A DNA stretch of 64,000 nucleotides from Podarcis cretensis (Eukaryota), in NCBI GenBank assembly GCA_951804945.1, contig OX638154.1, forward strand, positions 22,196,001-22,260,000, in the 5' to 3' direction. The position numbers were made by a program, and so were the translations under genes. The notes beneath the pieces were generated by a model. That model made no database searches, was not told the DNA's origin, and saw nothing but the letters and a program-made list of their open reading frames with translations. Shown one piece after another: positions 10,048 to 61,504 of this stretch (the stretch's first letter is position 1; each line of letters opens with the position of its first letter).

Positions 10048-10061
10048 ATGCATCCACAGAG
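10048..10061 (+). CDS. ZMYND8: ZMYND8 first coding exon (MHPQ-S)
   Basis: ATG CAT CCA CAG AG|GTAAGC. Phase-2 join to 25571 gives MHPQSLAEEEIK, the N-terminus I recall for the long mammalian ZMYND8 isoform. Confidence 0.9.
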
Positions 10062-12132
10062 GTAAGCTTTACTTTTTTACATTTTTTTCCTCTAAAACCT
10101 ATGAGTTGTGGTTTAACAGTGTGATTCTCTGTGATTTGTCGCGCAAAACTCACCCCACAGCACTTTATTAAGTTGAAAATGTTTAAATTTGCTTTCTTGG
10201 GTCACATGGTTTAGTAGCCATTAGCCATAGCTTTATTTTACAGACTCGCAAAACGTTTGCATACATACCTCTTCACAAGGGGATGGTGGTTTTTAGAGTT
10301 TGTCAAGATACTGTTCTTCCAAAGCAGCTTTCTGTATCTGAGCAGTTTGCCTGCACTATTGTCTGTTGTGTCACATGCCTGCTGAAGAGAAAATGGAAGC
10401 TAGGGAGCAGATGCATTTAACTGCCCTACAGGGAGACAAGCAGGGATAATGGCAGACAGCAGAACAGGCAAGTTTACCTTTTCAAACAGTGAAAAGAAGA
10501 GCTATGCTAAGTTATCCCTGATAAAATATGGGATTTTTAGCAGCCTAGACTGCAGTAAATAGTGCTAATGGTAGATTGAAGATACTGGGCCTAACTGGTG
10601 GATTGCTATTGCATCATGTTTTTTGTGCAGTTTTGCCTTAACTTAAAATGGATATTTAACTCTCTCTTTTTTAACAGGATCCTTAGAAGCAGTGTGTGCA
10701 TTTTTCTGGATGAGAATATATAGCTTACAAGCTGTCTCTTTAAAAATGACTTTCTTATTGTAGGTTTTAGAAATAGTTAAGGTCTAGGTCTGAATCCACC
10801 AGGCATAGCTATGCATCTCTTCCTGTGTCTTACTTATTTAAAGACAATTCAATTTTTAACTATTATCTACCTTTTATTTAGTACAGATAAAATGATTTGA
10901 CTTTTTAACTGTGCTTTTCTCTTCTGTAAAAAATCAGGCACAGTTCTCAGAGGTGGAGTGATATAAAATCATGTGTGGTTCATGAGAGCATTACATGTTC
11001 ATTTTTTTCCTCCTTTTCGGGCTTTTCTGGTTTTTGGCATGATGCTACGTAATTATTTCAAAAATTTCCTTTTGGTCAAATCCCAAATCTGCCAGCTTCT
11101 TGTATCCTATTTACTGGGAAAAATGAGATGGTTGCTTGAACACTTGGTAAGTAAACTTGTATACTATTCTTTGATAATTTTAAACAGTTCTCAATCTTTT
11201 GCTTTTAACAGGGCAAAATTAATCCAGCTAGTGAATTTTTGTGGATTCAGTAAAAATAAATATTATTGTATTCTCAAAATTCTGTTCATTCAAACAGAGT
11301 GCTTTTCACAATGTTCTGCCACACATGAAATGTATACTTCCTGTTTTCCTCTGAAAACAAAATTCTGCTTACTCTTTGTTCCTAGACCCCCTTAATTAAT
11401 GCATTTGCAGGTTAAAGCTCAATTCAGACTTTCCTCAGGCTTTTGAAGTGTGATGAATGTGCTAGTTCTCAGCAAAGTAATTTACTACATTGTTATAAGG
11501 CTATCCTTCAGTAACTCTATGCTTTTGTTATCCTATGATATATCATCCAGCATGAAATTTGGTTTTAGAACCACTTTTGAGTATCTTGTGCTTTTAAAAT
11601 AATCTGGAACTGAGACATTTTGTATGCATGTCTCAACAAGCAGCTTTTCATTTAACATTTTCTCACAGCATTACACTCTGCTGTGTGTTCAGTTTGTGCA
11701 TTGTTTTGTAACAGTGCAATTCACAATATTATACAAATGTATCTTCTGAAAGAATGCCTTGTCACCATTTGTGCAGGGGCCTCATGATGATTATAAACTG
11801 CTATCTAGTATCCCTTTTACTATGATTTTGTCCTTAAGCTCTATCGCTTGTTGAAAAGCTCCAAAGTATGTACCATTAAGAATACCTAATTCAGATTATT
11901 CTCTTCCCCTCCCCCCATTTCTAAAGAAGCTGACATTTATTATCGGGCTTTTATGCTATTTTAGAATTTATTACCAATATACCTTAAATGTTTAGTTCCA
12001 GTGGTTGTCAAAACTGTGCTCAGATGTATTTTTCTTGCAGCACTTTATTACACATTAGCAGCTGGGTGTGGAATCTTAACATTACACAATATGATCTTAT
12101 GAAGAAGCTGGAGAAAATGAGCTTGAATTAAA

Positions 12133-12188
12133 ATGGCTCCCCTAGGTTTTGTTGAAGAAGGATGTGTCTCAAATCTGCACCTTCAGAG
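12133..12188 (+). CDS. ZMYND8: Candidate alternative first coding exon of ZMYND8 (MAPLGFVEEGCVSNLHLQ-S)
   Basis: AAAATGG (good Kozak context), 18 open codons, ending CAG AG|GTATTG in phase 2, in frame with exon 2. No transcript evidence. Confidence 0.4.
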
Positions 12189-15100
12189 GTATTGTTGACA
12201 GGGGGAGGCATATTTGCATGGACTACCCTTGTGCACATAATGAAACACAGCATCACAAGTCCCCTGAAGTTCACCCTTTTAAATGTTCAAATGCTAATTC
12301 TTTCATAGTTCACAAAATATAAATGTCTGCATTGCAGCAAGATGTCTGAGGCAAGGAGAGACAGCAGTGTTGTTTCCAGATCAGACCAATCATGCTGCTC
12401 TTTCGAGAGCCTGAGCCAATAGAAACAAGATAGGTTAAAGATTGGCAAATACTGTAGCAAGGCTAAGAGAGGCCTTCTGGAAATTTCTCCCATCTTTGTT
12501 CCATCAAAGTAAAGCAAATTCAGCCAAACTGAGGAATTCCAATTAAAAAGAAATGTTTTTGCAAAATATAACAGTCACTTTTATGGATGTCATATCCTTA
12601 GAAGCACGGTGTGCCATCCCATCCCACCCTTTTTGAGCCAGGTGATGTTTTTGTCTTTAAACAACAGAGGGTGGGTAGATGAATACTTAAATCTTTTTGC
12701 CCAGACAGTACTGAATCTTGAAAGTTTTGTTGTTCACTGTAGTTTGTATGAAGCAACATAGCTGTGATTTGGTCTTCTGATAGAAAACAATAGTTTTGGC
12801 AATAAGGAAGTATTATAATTCCAATTTATTTATTTTTAGCAGCTACATATTTTTTAGCTTGGCCAGTATGAATATAATTCACCACCATTATTTAGACATC
12901 ATTCGGTTACTTTTGTAATTGACTCTGCAGAGAACAGAACCGAAAAACAAAGCGTTCTGGTTTAGAAAATAAAATAAAAACATTAGCTTTAAAAAGACCA
13001 CATGCCTTTCATTCTGAGTAGCAGTATTATTTTAGTTTTGAGCTAAATGGAAGTGGGTAAGCTTATTGATAGCATTTGACATTGCAGGGAAAGGAAAGGG
13101 TTCCTTATGTAAAGAGTCCAAAAAGGAATGCTTCTCCCCGCCCCCCCTTCAGCAGCTGCTTTGCTGACATTGGAAGAACCATATGCAAAAGAGTCCCTAG
13201 GATTTCCAACACATTTGTAAATTTAACATCTGTGTACATGAGCTTCTCTGTATAATGGCCACTCTCCCCCCTCCCTCGTTCAGAAAAGCAGCCATGTTTG
13301 TTTTATACCTGGCAAGAAATAAAAGAAATTCAATCCTCCCTAAGACAGGTGCTACTTTGTAGTCATCCGCTCTAGAGTGATAAGTCTCAGTGCCAGCTAT
13401 GCCCTAGATTCTGTTGAGCCAAGAGTATCAACTTAAAGAGCCCCAGATGGCATCTTGGTATTCTGGGAGCTGTGCTTGTACCAAATTCTCTACATAGCAC
13501 CACAAAATAGGTGCACTAGGCCTTAAGATTGGACTTTCAAAACCTGTTGTTAGAAACCAGGGCCCAATGTATTCCCCCCACAGAATCTGTTACATATAAG
13601 CTGAGGTTAACATATTTTGCTACAATCAGACATGTTTTTTCCCTTCAGTGATAACAATTTATTGTCAGAGCCCATGACGTTGAGTGATTCAAAATATGAT
13701 AAAAAGAAACCTTTATCTTGAGGTAATATTCACAGCACTAATCGAGTGTTGGTTGTGCACAAAGGAATATACTCAGTTATGTTTCCATATTTTGGAGGTG
13801 TTCAGCCAGAGTTGGCTTAGGCATGTCAGCTTCTCCATTGGATTGAGCTGTTAGTATTATAAGAAACCTATTATGCCATATAAGTATTAATTAAACAGTT
13901 GCTTGCAAGATCCTGTAATATGTGAACATTATTACCACTTTCTCATGCTTTTAAGGAAAAAGCACATTTAAAATGTATGTATGCATCTGGATATAAACTG
14001 CTTAATTTGTCTTGTACGTATTGTCAGTATTATTTAAATTTAATACACATTAGGCTTTTTGCAGGGTAGCTGGAGAAACATTTTCAGTGCTTGCACATGC
14101 AAACTGAAGCCAGCATCTAAAATGGAAGGATTTCCTTAGTAACCTGTGACTTCATAGAGCTCCCTGTCTTCTGAATTTTAGTTACACATTAGGTTGTCAG
14201 ATATCACTGTGTCATCTTTTACTATTTTTTCTGCTACCGAGGTGATTGCTTTGAATACAGTACTGCTGTTTAAACAAGGGACATAGTTATTGAATAAATT
14301 GCTACCATTTTAGCTTTCAGTATAGGAATGAGGCAATGCAGTGCTGCCAGACGCCATTTTAAGAATCCCTGCATAAATAGCATAGCTACCGATGAGTAAG
14401 AGACTGTTATAGGTGAGTGCTTATACACAGATGCTATTTATTCAGTAATGGCATGCAAAATACTTTGTCCAATTTCTTATTAAATGCAATTTCTGGACAT
14501 TTTATTTTATGATTGCTGCTCACAATCTGAGAGCAGCAATAATTACTTTGAAGCTAAAAATGAATTTAAATGTTTATGATGTTAAAACATTGTTTTTCAT
14601 TTAAATGAAATAGCTTCCAGAAATGTATAGTGCTTGAGATTAACTTAAATACAGTAATTTCCATAACTGATACTATTATATATGTGGGCAATATATTCTA
14701 GGTAGATTTCCATATCAGATTTCCTGGTTTAAATGTCAAGGTGCAGCAGTTCATCTACAACTTTTGATTGCTGTCTATAGTTAACCTAGGATAAGGGAAT
14801 ATGCAGATGTTTCTACATTCATATTTTTATTATTCAGGGTGTAATGAAATGATACTCTCTGAAGGATGTGTCTTATTTGTATAAATAAAAAAAACCTATA
14901 ATACCTTATGGAGGCAAATTGGAAATATGATTCTTTTTTTAGTTGTGATAAAGATAGATATGCCTCAAACCCATAGGGTATATTTGTGCTCATTTATAAC
15001 CCTCCTTTTTACTTCCCATCTCCCAGCTTCCCTGTAAAAATAAAGGAGGGGGAGAGCTTCCATTTGCAAATCATCTCTGTCATGCAAGTTAAAAAGTATA

Positions 15101-15737
15101 TGAGGAACAACTTTGTTTTGTTTTAACATTTGAGACTTAATTGAGTGTGTGTTACTGAACCTGATAAATGCTGTAGTTAATATAAATTTTAGTCAGTTAT
15201 GTTGTTGGCAAAGATTTCCTCACAGAAGTGCTCTCTTCAGTGTCTTTTTCTAAGAAAAGAATTCCCTCACAGAATATATATATTTGTGGTGGTAGAAACT
15301 TCAGTACTATTTGTGGTACACAGCTCTAGACTAGTATCTTCTTAAATGCACAGTAAAAGGCAAGAAATATCAGATTACTAAAATGAGCTGAATGAATTGT
15401 TGGTGAATGTGGTAGGAAAGATGTTGTATATTTACCCCTCAGTTTTTTACTGGTTTTCTTTAACATTTTCTTTAATATTTTCTTTCTGGTTACATTTCAT
15501 TTGATGTCAAAGTGCACCTCCATTTTTTTAAAAGCAAAAGAATAGAAAGGAGTATTGGGGAAAGAAAAAGCATTGCAAAAGTACTGAATCACAGCTGTTT
15601 GGGAAATGTTTTCTTTTGAGATTGCCTCTTTAAATCTTTTATTTAAACTGCTGGTGAGATGAATGAGATATTGTATTTAAACAGCCTGCAAACAATTCTT
15701 CTGGAGAATTAAAGGCTAGAACCTTAATTTTTTTAAA

Positions 15738-15947
15738 TAGAAACATAGGAAGCTGCAATGTACAGAGACAGATCATTGGTCTGTCCAGTTCATTGGTCCA
15801 TTTAGCTCAGTATTGTCTGCACTGACTGGCACTGATTCTCCAGGGTGTCAAAGTCTTTGCCAGCTCTACCTGGAGAGGCAAGTGATTGAATTTGGGACCT
15901 TTTCCATGCACAGTATGTTCTCCAATATGAGGTTTTGGCCCCTCCCC
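15738..15947 (-). mobile_element. Squam3-like tRNA-derived SINE (degenerate)
   Basis: Minus strand reads GGGGAGGGGCC...AAGGTCCCAAATTCAATC (tRNA-like head), then ...GACAATACTGAGCTAAATGGACCAATG...GCAGCTTCCTATGTTTCTA tail. Confidence 0.7.
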
Positions 15948-16019
15948 AGGTATTTAGGATTTGGAAAGCTGCTATAATTCAGAAGAGTATCACAAAAATC
16001 CTGACTTCAAGAAGCCAGC

Positions 16020-16067
<48 letters not shown>

Positions 16068-19000
16068 TTATTATTTGTACCCCGCCCATCTGGCTGGGTT
16101 TCCCCAGCCACTCTGGGCGGCTTCCAACAGAGATGAAAAATACACTAAAATGTCACATATTAAAAACTTCCCTGAACAGGGCTGCCTTCAGATGTTTTCT
16201 GAATGTCAGGTAGTTGTCCATCGCCTTGACATCCGATGGGAGGGCATTCCACAGGGCGGGCGCCACCACCGAGAAGGCCCTCTGCCTGGTTCCCTGCAAC
16301 TTGGCCTCTCGCAGTGAGGGAACCGCCAGAAGGCCCTCGGAGCTGGACCTCAGTGTCCAGGCAGACCGATGGGGGAGGAGACGCTCCTTCAGATATACTG
16401 GACCGAGGCCATTTAGGGCTTTAAAGGTCAGCACCAACACTTTGAATTGTGCTCGGAAACGTACTGGGAGCCAATGTAGGTCTTTCAAGACCGGTGTTAT
16501 ATGGTCTCGGTGGCCGCTCCCAGTCACCAGTCTAGCTGCCGCATTCTGGATTAGTTGTAGTTTCCGGGTCACCTTCAAAGGTAGCCCCATGTAGAGCGCA
16601 TTGCAGTAGTCCAAGCGGGAGATAACCAGAGCATGTACCACTCTGGCGAGACAGTCTGCAGGCAGATAGGGTCTCAGCCTACGTACCAGATGGAGCTGGT
16701 AAACAGCTGCCCTGGATACAGATTAGACCTGTGCCTCCATGGACAGCTGTGAGTCCAAAATGACTCCCAGGCTGCGCACCTGGTCCTTCAGGGGCACAGT
16801 TACCCCATTCAGGACCAGGGAATCCTCCACACCTGCCCGCCTCCTGTCCCCCAAAAACAGTACTTCTGTCTTGTCAGGATTCAACCTCAATCTGTTAGCC
16901 GCCATCCATCCTCCAACCGCTTCCAGACACTCACACAGGACCTTTACCGCCTTCACTGGTTCTGATTTAAAAGAGAGGTAGAGCTGGGTATCATCTGCAT
17001 ACTGATGAACACCCAGCCCAAACCTCCTGATGATCCCTCCCAGCGGCTGCATGTAGATGTTGAAAAGCATGGGGGAGAGGACAGAACCCTGAGGCACCCC
17101 ACAAGTGAGAGCCCAGGGGTCTGAACACTCATCCCCCACCACCACTTTCTGAACACGGCCCAGGAGGAAGGAGCGGAACCACTGTATGACAGTGCCCCCA
17201 GCTCCCAGCCCCTCAAGACGGTCCAGAAGGATGTCATGGTCGATGGTATCAAACGCCGCTGAGAGATCCAGCAGAACTAGGAAACAGCTCTCACCTTTGT
17301 CCCTAGCCCGCCGGAGATCATCAACCAGTGCGACCAAGGCAGTTTCAGTCCCATGATGAGGCCTGAATCCCGACTGGAAGGGATCCAAATGGTCCGCTTC
17401 TTCCAGGCGTGCCTGGAGTTGTTCAGCAACCACTCGCTCAATCACCTTGCCCAAGAATGGAAGGTTTGAGACTGGGCGATAATTGGCCATCGTGGCAGCA
17501 TCTAGAGATGGTTTTTTAAGAAGCGGTTTAATAACCGCCTCTTTCAGCGGGTCTGGGAAGGCTCCCTCACGGAGGGAAGCATTCACCACCCCACGAAGCC
17601 CATCGCCCAGTCCTTCCCGGCTAGCTTTTATAAGCCAGGATGGGCAAGGATCCAGGAGACAGGTGGTTGGCTTCACTCGTCCAAGCAGCCTGTCCACATC
17701 CTCGGAGGTAACAGATTGGAATTGATCCCACACAACTTGACCAGACAGGACTCTAGCACTCTCCCGCCCCGGCCCTGCTCCCACGGTGGAGTCTACTTCT
17801 TCCCGAATCTGAGCGATTTTATCTGCAAAAAAATTTGCAAAATCATTGCAGGAGAACCTGTGGCCCGTACTGGGCCCCGATGTTACAGGTGGTTCCGCTA
17901 AATTGTGAACCACCTGAAAGAGTCTCCTGCTGCTGTTTTCTGCAGATGCAATAGAGGCGGTGAAGAAAGTCTTCTTCGCCGTCGCTATCGCCACTTGGTA
18001 GGCTCGACGTTGAGCTCTAACCTGTGTCCGGTCAGATTCAGAATGGGTTATCCGCCACCGGCGCTCTAGCCGTCTCAACGATTGTTTCATTGCCCTCAGA
18101 TCCGTGGAAAACCACGGGGCTCTCCGGGCTCCATGCAATCGGAGAGGGCGCTTCGGAGCCAAACAGTCAATAGCCCTGGTTAACTCCACATTCCAGCGGG
18201 CCACCAGGGAATCGGCTGAAAGGCCATCAACATGGGATAAAGCATTCCCTACCACTCTCTGGAAACCATTTGGATCCATTAAGTGGCGGGGCGGACCATC
18301 CGAATTGGTCCCACCTCCCTGCAGAGGGGATGGGTCGCAGAGAAGTCCAGTTGCACCAGGAAGTGGTCTGACCATGGCACTTCTTTCGTTTCACTTTTAC
18401 TTAGGGTCAGATCACCAACATCCGTAGAGGTAAACACCAGGTCCAAGGCATGTCCGCAGCTATGGGTTGGGCCAGACTTATTCAGGGACAGCCCCATGGA
18501 GGCCATGCTTTCCACGAAGTCCCGAGCGGCCCCTTGTAAGGTCGTGTCGGCATGGATGTTAAAATCCCCTAGGACGACCAAGCTAGGTGTCTCCAGGAGA
18601 ACATCCGCCACGACCTGAAGCAGCTCGGGCAGGGAATCCTTGGTGCAGTGGGGAGGTCGGTACACCAAAAGGAATCCTGTACTGCCCCTATTGCCCAACT
18701 TCCAGAACATGCACTCAGAAAACTGGGTCTTCCCAATAGGACGCCTGGTGCAAACTAATGACTTCCTAAAAATCACTGCAACCCCCCCTCCCCGCCCACA
18801 TGACCTGGGTTGCTGTGCGTAAGAGAAACCTGGTGGACAAGCAGCGGCAAGGACAGGCCCATCTGCTTCATCCAACCAAGTCTCTGTTACACATGCCAGG
18901 TCAAGTCCTTCATCCATGATCAAGTCATGGATGGCAGTGGTCTTATGAATCATTGACCTGGCATTGCACAGCAACACTTTCAGGTCATGTGGGTATCCCT

Positions 19001-19631
19001 TGCTGATTCTAGTATTCATCCGGTCAGGGCCAGACCCGGAGTCAGGGATAGTCTTCAAACAACGACTAAACCTGCCTCCTCGGTAATGACATGGTCTGGT
19101 CTTAGCGTAACTCATCCTCCTACCCGTGATAACTGAGATCGGTTGTCCCAGTGCATTCCCCCCTGTGAAACATATCCCAGCCATTTTGTGGGCTGGGGCC
19201 CATTCCCCGGCAGCCCTGACCCCTCCCCTTAAGAACAAAATAACCCCTTTAAAAAACAAAAAAACAACAACAACACAAATAAAACAATACAAACAAAAAA
19301 CAATAAAAATTATAAAAATTACAAAAACATAAAATCAAACAAATTCCCAGGCCCAATAAACATCCACCCCACCCCACCCCACCCCACATACAAAAAATTC
19401 AAAATAAAAATTTTAAAACATTTTAAAAGCACTCTGCACCCCTCCAGCAGTAACAGCAACTGTCCTAGTGAGGCCCGTCAGGCCCTGCCCTGGGCCAGAT
19501 GGTGAGTGGCAGGAAGGAGCAGGGCCCCATACACTCACACAGGAGAGTCCTCCTGGGCAGCAGAGTCCAGCAGTCCTTATGAGGCTTCAGGCCCCGCCCC
19601 AGGCCAGATGGTGAGTGGCAGGAAGGAGCAG
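16020..19631 (-). mobile_element. Young L2-clade LINE, complete ORF2 (APE plus RT) disabled by one frameshift and one stop
   Basis: APE motifs (LLCNARS, CVTETWL, LLVYRPP, VLGDFN, WSDH) in 18279-19292. RT motifs (QSGFR, LDLSAAFDT, GVPQGSVLSP, YADD) in 16723-18375. C-terminus in 16153-16641. 3' stem-loop and (TTA)n tail at 16020-16122. Confidence 0.93.
16153..19292 (-). pseudogene. L2 ORF2 (endonuclease-reverse transcriptase), disrupted
   Basis: Frameshift near 18285 (VRPAT* versus PRHLMDP). In-frame TAA at 16723-16725; the downstream ORF continues in the same frame. Confidence 0.88.
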
Positions 19632-20560
19632 TCTTAAGTTACACTGTCTTAAGTTAAAACAGTGTAAATTACCCCATTCCTAACTCTGTTCAAGAGCAGG
19701 GCTGCTGCCAGCTGAGCTGGCCTAAGACTGGCAGTGGGAAAACAGAAATAGAATTTGAGTTACACCAGTATGCCACCCCTTTTGATGTTATAGGTTTGGC
19801 GCGGTCACCAGCTCTTGTGACCAAGCGCAACGGTGTTAACATTCTGCCCACCACACCCCAAAACACCCATTTTAAAGGGCTTATGCTCGTGGAAGATATA
19901 CCAGTCTCAGTTCAGCCAGCATAGTCAGTTTGAGGGAGTTATGCCAGTGTATCTCTGGCTAAACCAGAATGTGGGGCATATGCCAACATGGCCTGGTTGA
20001 GCTGGAGATCCTCTGGATCCTCACTTAACCATCCCAGCGAACCTTGGGTTTGGAACGTTCCTTAAATTACATATAGTGTGATTAAAATTAAAATGGAAGG
20101 TTATTCTCTATGTACAAAATTTCACCGCTATAACCCCAGTTGATAAGTGGAACGAGTGTGTGTTTATAGCTGTCAGAAAATGCAGGGATATTCTAGCCCC
20201 ATAATGCAAAACCATTGTGACAATTGGTAAATGTATATCTGTATAATGTTTCGCTGATCTTGGGATCCTGATAGAGTAGTGTATATAACAGAGATGTGAA
20301 GTCAAATCTATGGTCCTATCCTTAATCTATTTACAAAAAAGTATTCTGTTTTCGATGTAATTAATTACCACTAAAATGTGTTAACTGTTGTCTTGCACAA
20401 TTTTAGAAAATTTAGAAATTTCAGAACTGTGGGGCATTTGGAAGAGCAGCAGAGAAGAGGCAGAAGTAATTTATTGTATCTATGTTTGTCATGCCTGCAA
20501 AGAGAATAGTATCTTATCTGCAAATATGTAGATAGAAATTAGCTCAGACTATTCTAAATA

Positions 20561-21106
20561 CTGTATGTTTTGCCCTATAGGACACACTTTTCCCCCTCCA
20601 AAAATGAAGGGGAAATGTGTGTGCGTCCTATGGGGCAAATGCAGGCTTTCGCTGAAGCCTGGAGAGTGAGAAGGGTCGGTGCGCACCGACCCCTCTCACT
20701 CTCCAGGCTTAAGGAAGCTATCCGCAAGCCATGGGAGCCCGGCGCAAAATCGCGCAGCTCTCCCATGGCTTGCGGAGAGCTGCCTGCATCCTGAAGCCTG
20801 GGGCGCGCTGAGTTCAGCGCGCCCCAGGCTTCGAGCTTCGCGCAGCTCTCGGCAAGCCATGGGAGAACTGCGCGACTTTGGGCAGATATCCACAAGCCTG
20901 GGGAGACCGGCGCAACTTCCCGCCGGGCTCCCTAGGCTTGCGGATAGCAGCCTGTTCTGGGGGCAGGGGTTGGGGGAAGCTCGGGCTTCCCCCGCCCTAG
21001 CCCCGCGCCGGGGGGGGGGAATATTTTTTTTCCTTTATTCCCCCCCTAAAAAAAAAACCTAGGTGCACCCTATGGGCCAGTGCGCCCTATGGGGCGAAAA
21101 ATACAG
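20561..21106. mobile_element. Tc2/pogo-type non-autonomous DNA transposon (MITE), TA TSD
   Basis: TA|CTGTATGTTTTGCCCTATAGG ... CCCTATGGGGCGAAAAATACAG|TA; GC-rich interior; same family as 55796-56296. Confidence 0.8.
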
Positions 21107-21161
21107 TACTTTGAAAAAGATTTTTGACAGTTGACTCTTAAAGAATTAATTAGGGCATTGT

Positions 21162-21474
21162 ACGCGGGTGGCGCTGTGGGTTAAACCACAGAGCCTAGGA
21201 CTTACCGATCAGAAGGTCGGCGGTTCGAATCGCCGTGACGTGGTGAGCTCCCATTGCTCGGTTCCTGCAAGCAAATAAATAGGTACCACTCCGGCGGGAA
21301 GGTAAACGGTGTTTCTGTGCGCTGCTCTGGTTCTCCAGAAGCGGCTTAGTCATGCTGGCCACATGACCTGGAAGCTGTATGTTGGCTCCCTCGGCCAATA
21401 AAGCGAGATGAGCACCGCAACCCCAGAGTCGGCCACGACGACCTAATGGTCAGGGATCCCTTTACCTTTACCTT
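21162..21474 (+). mobile_element. Sauria SINE
   Basis: Head ACGCGGGTGGCGCTGTGG with B-box GGTTCGAATC and an (ACCTTT)n tail; homologous to 25806-26175. Confidence 0.88.
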
Positions 21475-21485
21475 ACAGATCATTA

Positions 21486-21657
21486 AAACAAAATAAAAAA
21501 ATTCCTTCCATGTATCTGAAGTGTGTATCTGAAGAAGTGTGCATGCACACGAAAGCTCATACCAAGAACTAACTTAGTTGGTCTTTAAGGTGCTACTGGA
21601 AGGATTTTTTTTATTTTGTTTTGACTATGGCAGACCAACACGGCTACCTATCTGTAA
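21486..21657 (+). mobile_element. Penelope-like element pseudo-LTR fragment with a partial inverted copy and 14-bp flanking direct repeat
   Basis: CTTACAGATCATTA occurs at 21472 and 21658. Inverted repeat 21485-21510 / 21597-21622. Contains a hammerhead core and ends CAGACCAACACGGCTACCTATCTG. Confidence 0.8.
21525..21562 (+). ncRNA. Minimal type-I hammerhead ribozyme (Penelope-associated)
   Basis: GTAT-CTGAAGA(A)-GTGTG CATG CACAC-GAAA-GC-TC^ATAC: stem I, catalytic boxes CUGANGA and GAAA, stem II, palindromic AGCU stem III, and a UH cleavage site after 21558. Confidence 0.8.
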
Positions 21658-21789
21658 CTTACAGATCATTAGTTGCTTAAAAACAAGGAGCAGATGGGCA
21701 TTGCTTGAGGCTTAAGTGACTTTGGTGGCGTGGAGTGGCCCACCTATGCTCCAATGTGGACACAAAGAGCCTAGTTTCTGTTTTCTACA

Positions 21790-22175
21790 CTCTGGTAATC
21801 TCTATGTTAATTACTTCAATCTATTGCACTTGGGGCTGCCTTTGAAGATCGTTTGGGAACTGCAGGTAGTATAGAATTCAGCTTCCTGGATGCTCACCAG
21901 GACAATATGTATGGTGTGAGAACATAACACTAATCTTGGTCTGTCTGCACTGGCTTCCAATTAGTTTCTCGGCCAATTTCAAAGTGCTGGTTTTGACCTA
22001 TAGAATGTTGTGTAGCTCAGGACCACAAGGACCAGCTGTCTCCATATAAACCAACCCAGACCCTGCAATTGTCATCTGAGACCCTTCTCCATGTGCCACC
22101 TCCACAGGAGGCCCATAAAGTGGCAACACAAGAATTAACCTTTTTAGTAGCTGCTCTCTTATGGAATGTTCTTCC
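21790..22175 (+). mobile_element. Old L2 ORF2 C-terminal fragment
   Basis: Degenerate homology to the LVISRLDYCNALYMGLPLK...LHWLPV.FRAQFKVLVLT segment of the young L2 at 16153-16641. Confidence 0.7.
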
Positions 22176-24289
22176 TAGGGCACCATCATTAAAAGATTAG
22201 ACAATTTCTACAGGACAGATTTGATAGCCATTAGACATGATAGTTAATAATGGGAACTTCCAGTTCATATGTGGTATATATTGATTACTAAGTGCAAGAG
22301 GTGATCAAAGAGAGAATGACTATTGCCATCATGTCTTCAGTGGCCACCTTTAGGCATTTGTCTTTAGGCATGGTTTACATGGTTTATAAAGCCATGGGTG
22401 CAAAGACTTCTCTCACTCCTCTTTTCCCCACTGTGCACTAGGTTCAATGTGGAAATCCATTAAGCCAGAGTTACCCATTTTGCCAGAAACTGGGAGCTCT
22501 GGCTTAATGTCATTTAACACACTGGGCTAATAAGGCATGAATTATGAAGCCATGGATGATTGCCTTTTGTGAGCTTCCCAGAGACATATGGCCAACTGTT
22601 TTTAGAAACAGAATGCAGGGCCTTGAATTCTTGTTATTTCATGACCTTAAGTATTCCTGCTGTGTCCTATTTGAACCTCTGCCATCCAATCATTTATATT
22701 CCATATTATTCTGGTTGGTGGCAACTGGGCAGGTTTCACAGGTATTGGCAGCTCCTATGAGTCTCAGACATTTGGAGAGCCATAAGACAATTTCCTGCTT
22801 TTTGACTGAAGCATATTGCAGTAAGAATAAACTCCCATGTTTCCCCTCAGCTATGGAGACAAACTGGACTTGTATAACCAAAGCCTGGAAAGCAGGGAAG
22901 GGGTGGTTTTTCCAAGTTGTGTCTGCCAGGGTTTTTAGTTCATCACCAGAGCAGATCTAAGGCTTGAGGAAGTTGTCCGTATAAATTGATACTTCTGTTT
23001 CTGGTTTCTGTTTCTGAGTTCCTGGTGTTGTGCCTGGCACTGGATGAACAGGACAGATTAGGGATTGCGTTTGCTCCTTGCTCCCGACAGTCTCCCCGCC
23101 TGAGCATCTGGGACGTGGTGTTGAGATTCTCCAGGCTGTCAGTCCTGAGGTATTTTAACATCCAAGCTGAGGCTGCTGTTTCTGGGGCAGCTCAAGACTT
23201 CACAGGGTTGTCCCAACTTGTCTTCAGCCCAACACAGGTGATCACACACCGGACCTGATTTTCTTGGTGGGGTAGGAAGAGAGTGATCTGAAGGTGATCA
23301 CTTTTGATACCATTTCCTTGGCATGATCAGCTCACCTGTTGAGGTTCAGATTAACAGTAACTTTCCCCCTCTGTTAGAATGGTCTGCCTTAATGTATCCT
23401 ATTAGTTTTCTGTTGGCTCTGGGGTCTTCTTCAGATGACAGGGTCTTGCGACCATATCAAAGATCTGGTCAGTCTGACGGATATAGAAATGATCCAGGCA
23501 GATGACATGATTGCTCCTGAGTATTTTCTTCCATTTAGCCAAGCCTGGAGTGGCACTGTGATATACCACAAAGCAGAAGGCAGTGATACCAGTTGGAAAA
23601 CAGCTAGAATGCAAGTGGAGAAAGTCTCCAAGCAATATAATTGAACTCAAGTGCATGCTCGTATAGTGTTAGAAACTGAGATATGAAAGCTAGGAGCTAA
23701 ATGGCACCCTAAACCTAGGTTATGGGCGCAAAAACAAAATGTCTAGACACACATGTTTATAAGAACACCACAAAGCTGAAAATGAATGAACTACAGCTAA
23801 AATATGCATTTTTCACATGGTCTAATCTTTTCCCTGATTACCCTCCTAATATTCTTAAGAGGGGTCTCTTCTCCAGTCTTCAGAGACTAGCTAGGAGTGG
23901 GGAGACAGAAAAAGGTCCTACTTTCCTTCCACTCTGCAGTTTTAATCTGAAATCTTAGGTGCAGTATTGTGCCCAGAGCTCAGAAACTGCTCGCACTTAG
24001 GAAGTTCCCTGTTGAGCCTGCTTTGTGGTGGAAAGCATCAAGGAAGAGTTGCTTCTCTGCCTCCATTGCACCCTTGGTGTCATGTTCAGTGGAGCTTTAT
24101 AGAGTAGTACAGTATGGAGCTTGTACACACTGGCTGAAAGGAAGTGGTAGAACACATAGTAGTCTGCATTGACTTTTTGCAAGGCTTTTGAGAATAAAAT
24201 TGCTTGTATTCATGGGGACCTAGACTCTAATATTGTAGCGGATCAGTAGTACCTTGTGCTATCAGGTCAGTTGTTGGAAAATTTGTTTC

Positions 24290-24522
24290 AGTTGATAAGA
24301 TTCAAGGATGTGGATGGGAGTGGTTGACCGTTTGTGTTCTTGGCCCTTGACCCTTGTGGTTGATAACATCTGACAGGGAGAGGACTGCTAGCTGACCAAG
24401 GAGATATATTAGTCCCTCTCTAAAGAAGGAGTGGTCCCAGGCTGCCTGGAAGAAGTGAGGGTTAGACCACCCCTTAAGAAAGCTTTCTTGTTACCACATG
24501 ATCTTAATAACTAATGGCCAGT
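24290..24522 (+). mobile_element. Old L2 RT-upstream fragment
   Basis: Degenerate match to the EDVDR..PTTC.LDPCPSWL...PLLKKPSLD...NYRPV region. Confidence 0.55.
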
Positions 24523-25570
24523 AAGCTCTAATGGTTTTAATCATGTTATAAATTACTTTTAAAAAAAAATCACAAATAGTTTCCATGAAAAATGTGTGCA
24601 TTAAGATTCACTGAACTTCATTCTGTGTCTCAGGGTTAGGGTTCACCACGGCAATTTGTTTTCTGTGGGCAACTCATTTATTCTCATTTTGTTTCAGGTT
24701 TAAAAAATATATTTAATATGGTGCTGCAATGGTATTTTAGAAAACAAATTTCCAGACTAGACTCTAAGAAGTGTAGTCACCATAGTCCCTTGAATATTAT
24801 CTCTTAGAAGTCTGTATATTTGTCATTTACAGATTTGCAATAGAAACCCATACAACTCTTACCTTCTCTGCTTTCTACCATCTTTCTTAGACTGAACATT
24901 TTATTGATTGATTGATTGATTGATTGGATTTATATACCATATTTCTTCCAAAGTGCCCAAGATGGTTTACAATTTAAACACTAAAACAAATACATTATAT
25001 GAATAATGAAATGTGCACTTGCAATCTTCTACTTCTGATAATGAAAAAAGGATATTGGAACAGGTTCTTAGGCATTTTATCCAACTTACAGGTCTATCCA
25101 TCCAAAATCAAACACCAATGTAATTTATTGTATCAATACTTCTGAAATGTACCTAATACATCTTTGTATTCAACATTTCTTATGTTGACATTACTACTAC
25201 TCAGACATTACTACTACTCAGAACTGTCAATTCTTGATAGGTAACATAAATTATTTCTTGCAAAAGTGGATTCAGGATCTTAGTCAAGCTCAGAACTATT
25301 TTGACCCCTCCTCTTTCCTGTCCCCATTGCTCAGTGCCCTTGGTATGTGTAGGTGATAGCATACCAGAGATCCTTATGAGGTTGGTGTGTACTCTAGTGT
25401 TGAAATTTGGATGAGAGTATTAACTCCGCTGTTGCCACAATACCCATGCACTGCAGTAGCACATGGAAGTGAGAATCAGGCTGCTAGTCAGCTTCCCTTC
25501 CTCTTTAAGGCCGCAGTATGTAAACTACAGTGTGAAAATAATAATCTTAAGTATCTCTTTGCTTTCTTAG

Positions 25571-25641
25571 CTTGGCTGAAGAAGAAATAAAGGCAGAGCA
25601 GGAGGTGGTGGAAGGGATGGATATCTCCACTCGATCCAAAG
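25571..25641 (+). CDS. ZMYND8: ZMYND8 exon 2 (LAEEEIKAEQEVVEGMDISTRSK)
   Basis: TTCTTAG| ... AAA G|GTGAGT. Includes the internal ATG (25617) of the shorter MDISTRSK isoform. Confidence 0.95.
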
Positions 25642-48135: not shown

Positions 48136-48750
<615 letters not shown>

Positions 48751-51755: not shown

Positions 51756-52921
51756 CCGTATTTTTCGCTCTATAACACGCACCTGACCATAACACGCACA
51801 TCGTTTTTAGAGGAGGAAAACAAGGGAAAAAACATTCTGAATGAAACAGTGGATGTATCATTTTTGTGCTTCATGCTGTGGCCACAGACATGTGATTTGA
51901 TGGTGAATTTGGGGTGACCCAATGCAAAAATCCTGAGAATCCCTGTGGATCCATGCTTTGTAACCACGTTTTTGCACCATTGCAGCCCCAGGCAACAGTG
52001 GGTGTGTGGTTTTTGGGGGGCAGGCTGTAGCCATGGACATGTTATGTGATCTGATGGTGAATTTGGGCTGACCCAATGCAAAGATCCTGAGGATCCATGT
52101 AGATCCATTCTTTTTAACCACGTTTTTGCACCATTGCAGCCCCAGGCAACAGTGGGTGCGTGATTTTGGGGGGGCAGGCTGTAACCATGGACATGCTATG
52201 TGATCTGATGGTGAATTTGGGGGGACTGAATGCAAAGATCCTGAGGATCCATGTGGATCCATGCTTTTTAACCACGTTTTTGCACCATTGCAGCCCCAGG
52301 CAACAGTGGGTGTGTGGTTTTTGGGGGGGCAGGCTGTAGCCATGGACATGCTATGTGATCTGATGGTGAATTTGGGCTGACCCAATGCAAAGATCCTGAG
52401 GATCCATGTGGATCCATGCTTTTTAACCACATTTTAAGTGGGGAGGGAAGGAAAAACACAGAAGGGACAAGGAGCAGGAGAGGGGTGTGCAGAGAAGCAG
52501 CTGGCTAAGAATGCAGGAGAGGGGTAGGGAGGAAAGGAAGGCAAAAGTTTTCTCTCACCTACCCACCCAAGCCAGCCAGCTCGCGCTCTCTCTCTCTTCC
52601 CTCCTGCATGTTTGCAGCTTTCCCCTCTGCTTGCCTGGAGGGGAGGGGCTTTCCCTGCTCTTTGTTCCGTTTCAGCAAACACAGCAAGGAAACAGAGGTG
52701 GATGGGCAGTAAGACCCTGAGGCAGAGTGCCGGAAAGCAGCCGCTTCCTCTTTTCAGGTTTCCCTTCTAGGAGACTCATGATTTGATTTTTGCCTGCTTT
52801 TTTTTGCCTCCCCTCGCACCAATTGGCTCCAGGGACCACACATTCGCTCAATAACACGCACAGACATTTCCCCTTCCTTTTTAGGAGAAAAAACCTGCGT
52901 GTTATAGAAGGAAAAATACGG
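51756..52921. mobile_element. Tc2/pogo-type non-autonomous DNA transposon with an internal 154-bp tandem array (~3.5 units)
   Basis: TA|CCGTATTTTTCGCTCTATAACACGCA ... TGCGTGTTATAGAAGGAAAAATACGG|TA; array at about 51890-52430. Confidence 0.88.
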
Positions 52922-55591: not shown

Positions 55592-55795
55592 GAACATGTG
55601 CTTCTAGAATGGGGTGGAAATAATTTTATTTTCCTTAAAAATCTAACAGTGCAGCTATTTTGAGGATTACTTCTCAAATAATATTTGCTCAATGTTGTCA
55701 AACATGCACATATAGATATCGATTTTGAAACCTTTATTGCACAAGGTTCAAATGCTGTCTTTGTATTTTCTCACTGTTTGAGCATTGAGGAAATA

Positions 55796-56296
55796 CCGTA
55801 TTTTTCGCCCTATAGGACGCACTTTTCCCCCCTCCAAAAATGAAGGGGAAATGTGTGTGCGCCCTATGGGGCGAATGCAGGCTTTCGCTGAAGCCTGGAG
55901 AGCGAGAGGGATCGGTGCGCACCGACCCCTCTTGCTCTCCAGGCTTCAGGAAGCTATCCCCCCAGCCCGGCAAGCTCCCAGAGCGATGCCAAAGCTGCGC
56001 GCAGCTTCGCCATCGCTCTGGGACCCGTTCTGGGGGCTGGGATCGGGGGAAGCTCTGGCTTCCCCTACCCTCAGCCGCGCAAGCTCCCAGAGCGATGCCG
56101 AAGGTGCGTGCACCTTCGCCATCGCTCTCCGACCCGTTCTGGGGGCTGGGGGCGGGGGAAGCTTGGGCTTCCCCCACCCCAGCCCCGTGCCTGGGGGGGG
56201 GGAAAATAAAAAATGTTTCCTTTATTTCCCACCCCCCCAAAAAAAAATCTAGGTGCGTCCTATGGGCCGGTGCATCCTATAGGGCGAAAAATACAG
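55796..56296. mobile_element. Tc2/pogo-type MITE, TA TSD (family of 20561-21106)
   Basis: TA|CCGTATTTTTCGCCCTATAGG ... CCTATAGGGCGAAAAATACAG|TA; internal ~110-bp duplication. Confidence 0.88.
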
Positions 56297-59873: not shown

Positions 59874-61504
59874 CCGTATTTTTCGCTCTATAACACGCAC
59901 CTGACCATAACACGCACATCGTTTTTAGAGGAGGAAAACAAGGGAAAAAACATTCTGAATGAAACAGTGGATGTATCATTTTTGTGCTTCATGCTGTGGC
60001 CACAGACATGTGATCTGATGGTGAATTTGGGGTGACCCAATGCAAAAATCCTGAGAATCCCTGTGGATCCATGCTTTGTAACCACGTTTTTGCACCATTG
60101 CAGCCCCAGGCAACAGTGGGTGCGTGATTTTTGGGGGGCAGGCTGTAGCCATGGACATGCTATGTGCTCTGATGGTGAATTTAGGCTGACCCAATGCAAA
60201 GATCCTGAGGATCCATGTGGATCCATGTTTTGTAACCACGTTTTTGCACCATTGCAGCCCCAGGCAACAGTGGGTGCGTGATTTTGGGGGGGCAGGCTGT
60301 AGCCATGGACATGCTATGTGCTCTGATGGTGAATTTGGGCTGACCCAATGCAAAGATCCTGAGGATCCATGTGGATCCATGTTTTGTAACCACGTTTTTG
60401 CACCATTGCAGCCCCAGGCAACAGTGGGTGCGTGATTTTTGGGGGGCAGGCTGTAACCATGGACATGCTATGTGATCTGATGGTGAATTTGGGGGGACTG
60501 AATGCAAAGATCCTGAGGATCCATGTAGATCCATGCTTTTTAACCACGTTTTTGCACCATTGCAGCCCCAGGCAACAGTGGGTGTGTGGTTTTTGGGGGG
60601 CAGGCTGTAGCCATGGACATGTTATGTGATCTGATGGTGAATTTGGGCTGACCCAATGCAAAGATCCTGAGGATCCATGTAGATCCATTCTTTTTAACCA
60701 CGTTTTTGCACCATTGCAGCCCCAGGCAACAGTGGGTGCGTGATTTTTGGGGGGCAGGCTGTAGCCATGGACATGCTATGTGATCTGATGGTGAATTTGG
60801 GCTGACCCAATGCAAAGATCCTGAGGATCCATGTAGATCCATTCTTTTTAACCACGTTTTTGCACCATTGCAGCCCCAGGCAACAGTGGGTGCGTGATTT
60901 TTGGGGCGCAGGCTGTAGCCATGGACATGCTATGTGATCTGATGGTGAATTTGGGCTGACCCAATGCAAAGATCCTGAGGATCCATGTGGATCCATGCTT
61001 TTTAACCACATTTTAAGTGGGGAGGGAAGGAAAAACACAGAAGGGACAAGGAGCAGGAGAGGGGTGTGCAGAGAAGCAGCTGGCTAAGAATGCAGGAGAG
61101 GGGTAGGGAGGAAAGGAAGGCAAAAGTTTTCCCTCACCTACCCACCCAAGCCAGCCAGCTTGCGCGCTCTCTCTCTCTCTTCCCTCCTGCATGTTTTCAG
61201 CTTTCCCCTCTGCTTGCCTGGAGGGGAGGGGCTTTCCCTGCTCTTTGTTCCGTTTGAGCAAACACAGCAAGGAAACTGAGGTGGGTGGGCAGTAAGACCC
61301 TGAGGCAGAATGCTGGAAAGCAGCCGCTTCCTCTTTTCAAGTTTCCCTTCTAGGAGACGCGCGGTTTGATTTTTGCCTGCTTTTTTTTGCCTCCCCTTGC
61401 ACTATTTGGCTCCAGGGACCACACATTCGCTCAATAACACGCACAGACATTTCCCCTTCCTTTTTAGGAGAAAAAATCTGCGTGTTATAGAAGGAAAAAT
61501 ACGC
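59874..61504. mobile_element. Second copy of the Tc2/pogo-type element, with ~6.5 units of the 154-bp array
   Basis: Same TIRs and unique arms as 51756-52921; units start at about 60008, 60162, 60316, 60470, 60624, 60778 and 60932. Confidence 0.9.

Follow-up and report, generated by a model that had tools for sequence, protein, structure and literature searches.

A minimal hammerhead from the pseudo-LTR of a young, abundant Penelope-like element, likely inert, in an intron of ZMYND8

Results

The hammerhead motif lies between two exons of ZMYND8

The window, i.e. the whole 64,000-nt stretch of DNA that was analysed, carries ZMYND8 on its forward strand, as an exon at 48175 matched ZMYND8 PDB chains (E 2e-55). 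The two exons that flank the motif (Table 1) were located using short motifs of the human protein, and their positions place the motif in sense orientation within a 15.5-kb intron (10061 to 25571) whose splicing is predicted from the sequence. A MYND exon was found near +68.3 kb, and a CpG island near -43 kb is likely the ZMYND8 promoter. Between ZMYND8 exons downstream of the hammerhead, the segment 27800-28600 is GC-rich with raised CpG and possibly represents an alternative first exon or promoter.

The window also contains several repeats. Two related GC-rich, MITE-like repeats with many inverted repeats occupy 20561-21110 and about 55770-56290, and a near-complete, broken LINE-like element lies on the minus strand at 16153-19334, with endonuclease-like/RT-like frames of 351, 555 and 189 aa. 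Also on the minus strand, a 263-aa frame at 364-1155 includes a 21-bp tandem repeat (942-1011) and resembles the coiled coil of a LINE ORF1. Arrays of one 154-bp unit with similar flanks (51890-52435 and 60008-61014) mark a dispersed repeat with an internal minisatellite.

Table 1. Features of the hammerhead, of the insertion that carries it and of the surrounding intron (positions of the window; those with a plus sign count along the element)
Feature	Position	Strand	Basis or remark
End of upstream ZMYND8 coding exon, GT donor	10048..10061	+	Sequence
SINE-like repeat, very abundant	21160..21474	+	Contig depth; loose ends at 21162 and 21474
Target-site duplication, left copy, 13 nt	21473..21485	+	Direct repeat; empty site in organism A
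Inverted arm, 26 nt	21485..21510	-	Complementary to 21597-21622; its outer end coincides with the short end of the family (about +97)
Junction patch	21511..21522	+	Repeats element +3 to +13 (11 nt); second GUAU competes for stem I
Sense arm	21523..21659	+	Pseudo-LTR +2 to 'tail' end (+133/134, L153 numbering)
Minimal type I hammerhead	21525..21562	+	Element +4 to +41; agrees with the descriptor in the accessible text of PMC4209133
Stem I, GTAT / ATAC	21525-28 / 21559-62	+	Sequence
Core, CTGAAGA	21529-35	+	Sequence
Unpaired extra A	21536	+	Between core and stem II
Stem II, GTGTG / CACAC, loop CATG	21537-41 / 21546-50	+	Sequence
GAAA; AGCT	21551-54; 21554-57	+	AGCT palindromic, stem III loop absent
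CUC triplet	ends 21558	+	Predicted cut site 21558/21559
First 11 codons of parent ORF	21627..21659	+	ATG at +102 in L153; ends at tail end
Target-site duplication, right copy, 13 nt	21659..21671	+	Direct repeat; empty site in organism A
Downstream ZMYND8 exon, AG acceptor	25571..25641	+	In-frame join to upstream exon

The motif has the anatomy of a minimal type I hammerhead

The motif combines a CUGAnGA core, GAAA and an NUH triplet with helices I and II, while helix III is absent, which is the composition of a minimal hammerhead ribozyme (min-HHR). It also carries the extra base between positions 9 and 10.1 (A21536), the G10.1-C11.1 pair (G21537-C21550) and the palindromic 15.2-16.2 that are set out in the accessible text of Cervera and De la Pena 2014 (PMC4209133), where the extra unpaired base is given as a conserved feature of the minimal hammerheads of Penelope-like elements (PLEs). 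Stem II and its CAUG loop together form a perfect 14-nt palindrome. A relaxed hammerhead pattern matched once in the window versus a mean of 0.01 in shuffled sequences (one of 100 shuffles reached one match). By every sequence feature tested, the hammerhead belongs with the PLE minimal hammerheads.

An Infernal search, which the preliminary description had proposed as a check, did not return a hammerhead family match: in an Rfam scan of 20500-22700, hammerhead families such as RF00163 were absent among the 67 matches at E <= 10, and spurious miRNA matches arose from the GC-rich MITE-like repeat. Such a miss would be expected where helix III is absent, and we did not take it as a refutation because the motif agrees with the published min-HHR descriptor. 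The parts named in the preliminary description were all found at the positions it gave, although it had left out the unpaired A at 21536. Its identification of a Penelope-derived minimal type I hammerhead, intronic and on the ZMYND8 sense strand, is borne out by the parent element and the strand of the gene. Its statement that every transcript from the upstream exons contains the motif holds for unspliced pre-mRNA only, since the motif is intronic.

That the motif is locally a single copy, as had been described, is true of the window and of the 204 kb around it (window -100 kb to +104 kb), where a search of both strands revealed no further hammerhead. The only related piece in these 204 kb, near -45.7 kb, is degenerate, covers +24 to +90 and lacks the core. 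This piece (G000:C6, about 45.7 kb upstream of the window) is older, 88% identical to the family, and situated just upstream of the CpG island.

The hammerhead is carried by a 186-nt insertion at the tail of a SINE-like repeat

The insertion that harbours the hammerhead measures 186 nt, bears a 13-nt target-site duplication, has its 5' arm inverted and is 99% identical to the pseudo-LTR of the parent element described below; 134 of 135 nt of its sense arm are identical to the element copy L061. This stub was inserted at the 3' tail of the SINE-like repeat, which resembles a Sauria SINE and points to a lizard as the probable host. The 3' junction of the insertion was present, without differences, in all three organism D sequencing runs examined, and in organism A, whose sequence of the intron diverges by ~3% (26 of 961 nt differ), a contig joins the SINE tail directly to one copy of the target site. 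This empty site is evidence of moderate strength: it is seen in one contig, of depth 8.5, whose shorter flank spans 25 letters and which stems from a run whose RNA nature is a guess. Because the empty-site contig contains the SINE, the SINE-like repeat is older than the stub, and judged from the sequences compared the stub is a young insertion. Further downstream, position 21701 is a common breakpoint of the contigs from organisms A, B and E, with at least 255 other letters there in organism A, which reflects either an insertion in these three or a deletion in the window's lineage.

The parent is a recently active Penelope-like family

The exact 38-mer had 6,322 matches across the 1.5-Gb genome (3,134 forward and 3,188 reverse), versus none for the reversed control. 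Longer copies continue upstream, reaching a frame that encodes RT and GIY-YIG, and the location of the motif in the pseudo-LTR of such an element was confirmed at two loci, L061 and L153. The latter (G000:C14:51054500-51064000) comprises tandem 3,011-bp units that are 99.97% alike, with two intact 910-aa ORFs, the ORF starting 60 nt past the hammerhead. Its predicted protein matched RVT_1 (E 9e-12) and, barely at the cut-off, GIY-YIG (22.6 bits). This single ORF with RT plus, at its C terminus, GIY-YIG with CCHH is the arrangement of an endonuclease-bearing PLE, and tandem or partial-tandem units, inverted 5' copies and a tail at one end, all of which were found, are likewise PLE characters. 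A CX4CXXC linker at residue 770 corresponds to the definition of Neptune/Nematis in the accessible text of Craig et al. 2021 (PMC8557442), so that by its zinc linker the parent would be of Neptune/Nematis type, of either clade.

Copies of the family vary very little (120 of 178 sampled were identical), and, given the near-identical tandem units with intact ORFs at L153, the family has evidently been active very recently. The copies proved too young to inform a covariation test, with no compensatory pair change evident among the 40 commonest variants listed.

Copies begin at the edge of the hammerhead and not at its cut site

To map where copies begin, we numbered the element from the A of TTCAGT (+1) and counted as a junction each copy whose two bases just upstream of a given position both depart from the parent, a procedure that misses chance-matching junctions and in which microhomology shifts positions. 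In total, 9,332 copies carry the downstream anchor and 3,750 continue upstream of +1. The 5' junctions numbered 29 at -7, 267 at +1, 1,022 at +2 and 452 at +3, with 1,741 at +1 to +3, at the 5' edge of the hammerhead. At the cut site (+38), the 9,332 anchored copies yielded 27 junctions and hence no excess versus the neighbouring controls +36 (25) and +40 (15); 14 of these 27 fit self-complementary microhomology. Since the 5' ends lie at the edge of the hammerhead and not at the cut site, the templates would have been uncut, which shows only that family copies derive from uncut RNA; cut RNA may be degraded unseen.

A TATA-like box, TATATAG, starts exactly 30 nt before +1, and for this reason the likeliest cause of the 5' pile-up would be transcription start 1–3 nt before stem I. 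It could instead stem from a 3' splice acceptor (TTTCAG followed by TGTAT) or from an RT-blocking structure, a reading we consider unlikely. In its favour, a pyrimidine tract and an AG lie just upstream, the 452 junctions at +3 fall on the would-be exon start, and a D. virilis Penelope intron ends at helix I according to the accessible text of PMC4209133. However, the peak itself, at +2, falls on the would-be last intron base, the 30 inspected +2 loci adjoin inverted arms or flanking DNA with no common upstream exon, and TATATAG stands exactly 30 nt ahead of the A of TTCAGT. A literature search, largely outside subscription papers and supplements, found no report on the start site of the parent family. 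GT or AT precedes most of the +2 junctions listed, and some +2 copies (L160, L161) carry extra GT repeats or repeated element-start patches, which may reflect slippage of the RT or successive template jumps at the RNA 5' end.

The 3' ends of 132 arms among the loci listed (114) were bimodal, falling near +98 and +134, and 40 of 45 inverted pairs among these loci had one 3' end of each kind, both arms and pairs having been picked by pattern and forming a non-random sample. The copy in the window fits these two ends, with its sense arm at +134 and its inverted arm at about +97.

Predicted folds of the stub avoid the active form

In its context, the hammerhead is predicted to lie in the loop of a 26-bp hairpin, with probabilities of about 0.2 for stem I, 0.4 for stem II and 3.5% for both with an open core. 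Folding separates the copy poorly from its parent, because the open fold predicted for the parent RNA is likewise low (3–13%). For two copies, the predicted energies were -11.1 kcal/mol for the active dimer, -14.6 for two monomers and -30.6 for a stem II duplex, and a predicted co-fold with the parent RNA also avoids the active form; these nearest-neighbour energies omit core tertiary, Mg2+ and protein terms. Trans pairing is predicted to run through the stem II palindrome and not through an active double hammerhead, and on these models trans cleavage of ZMYND8 pre-mRNA appears unlikely. As a counterpoint, the copy is intact in sequence and its motif is identical to that of the parent.

Discussion

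The hammerhead shares with the PLE min-HHRs, as described in the accessible text of PMC4209133, its type I topology, the absence of helix III and loop 3, a 4-bp helix I and its place in the pseudo-LTR (pLTR), and these too are scattered in their thousands as single copies derived from truncated elements and have been reported in reptiles. The uniformity of the copies resembles that of the young D. virilis set in the same study, which in its accessible text names no lizard family. In contrast, helix II is 5 bp long here and 7–8 bp in the Schistosoma min-HHRs, and the palindrome formed by helix II and its loop sets the motif apart from typical min-HHRs. That text also bears on activity, since it reports PLE min-HHRs to be uncleaved as monomers and of low activity as dimers or trimers. 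This agrees with the weak or inactive monomer expected in the preliminary description, as does the missing stem III, but not with the efficient dimer cleavage that had been assumed alongside it.

A further close comparison is PAc (Poseidon_Ac) of Anolis carolinensis, whose hammerhead, according to the accessible text of Frangieh et al. 2024 (PMC11167929), depends on the element's protein for cutting, its cleavage being dispensable for insertion and RNA-seq ends being absent at the cut site. Compared by description, the present family resembles PAc in having RT followed by a C-terminal GIY-YIG, tandem units and a hammerhead at the junction of pLTR and ORF, as well as two internal RT start sites that bound the tail, an uncut RNA template and a long end situated about 120 nt beyond where stem II starts. 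It differs in that its ORF begins at +102, past the hammerhead, whereas the PAc ORF begins at stem II. Unlike in Penelope/Poseidon, a CX2-5CxxC linker is present in the parent protein; this linker and the C-terminal endonuclease with CCHH are shared with Neptune/Nematis, as are an inverted 5'-truncated copy adjoining the pLTR and a 30–40 bp tail often at one end only (accessible parts of PMC8557442). The same parts describe microsatellite targeting as a feature of Neptune/Nematis, whereas the insertion target here is the tail of a SINE.

Very probably, then, the motif came from a young, abundant PLE, as the minimal hammerhead of its pseudo-LTR, was left in a 186-nt stub in a ZMYND8 intron, and is likely inert there. 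The anatomy of the stub, its parent element, the copy number and the positions at which copies start and end were observed, and from the sequence we infer a two-nick, two-primer origin. The element protein would nick both target strands 13 nt apart. One nick would prime reverse transcription at the internal tail site (+134), and synthesis would proceed to the 5' terminus of an uncut transcript, the likely start of which lies 30 nt past the TATA-like box and 1–3 nt before stem I. The other nick would prime at the second internal site (about +97), yielding the 26-nt inverted arm, and the two cDNAs may have joined through a short patch left by a template jump. Within the pre-mRNA, the motif would lack both stem III and a cis partner and would mostly adopt an alternative fold in the hairpin-closed loop, and it would therefore be spliced out uncut. 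Regulation of ZMYND8 by the hammerhead is unlikely.

Could the copy nevertheless be cut under some conditions? Expressed element RNA or RNP might pair with the intronic copy such that AGCU completes stem III and the ZMYND8 pre-mRNA is cleaved in trans. The intact core, the palindromic AGCU and the thousands of identical copies and intact parents as possible partners would allow this, and the anole hammerhead is protein-assisted, by a protein predicted to be a dimer (accessible text of PMC11167929). Nonetheless, we consider such conditional cleavage highly unlikely, since pairing in the predicted homo- and heterodimers goes through the inverted arm or the stem II palindrome, dimers show low activity in vitro (accessible text of PMC4209133) and cut-site junctions are not in excess. 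Furthermore, the anole protein requires the first 172 nt of the ORF, from stem II (accessible text of PMC11167929), and because the stub retains about 120 nt it would, by analogy, bind the protein poorly. Likewise, the special tie between transposon expression and ZMYND8 that the preliminary description had raised is not supported: 6,322 identical copies exist, this one is young and absent from the organism A contig, predicted trans pairing gives an inactive duplex, and the family's copies bear no trace of cleaved templates. Hammerhead cleavage in trans is known from schistosomes; our literature search gave no matching paper. A broader version, in which the family RNP, when switched on, activates silent stub hammerheads in introns including that of ZMYND8 and cuts the pre-mRNAs in trans, would amount to a genome-wide, transposon-triggered RNA cleavage network if true, but its prospects are exceedingly slim.

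An intronic ribozyme domesticated to shape ZMYND8 splicing, similar to that of RECK, is a reading in which we have next to no confidence. Domesticated intronic hammerheads are known, and as in RECK, CTCL and DTNB (accessible text of PMC6155905) the motif is of type I and in a host intron; it is also sense-oriented, with an intact core. However, those hammerheads are conserved across amniotes, whereas the present one lacks stem III and was inserted recently. Its 99% identity to active parents and its crisp target-site duplication argue against domestication, a sense orientation is as likely as not for any of 6,322 copies, and the orthologous site is empty in the related, ~3% divergent organism A (one contig, of moderate strength). 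A non-LTR retrozyme was rejected as an identity for the motif, the locus holding a single copy and no tandem hammerhead units. In the accessible part of a preprint (10.64898/2026.07.22.740005), hammerhead retrozymes are under-represented within the introns of Xenopus, a hint that genic copies carry some cost.

For ZMYND8, the consequence of the insertion is probably none. Its modest value lies with the family, in which the counts of young copies fit the in vitro anole model and extend it, with two internal RT start sites, one per end (40 of 45 inverted insertions among the loci listed), and an uncut template. The copies further suggest that the element transcript starts 1–3 nt ahead of the hammerhead, and the intact tandem copies offer material with which to test the role of PLE hammerheads.
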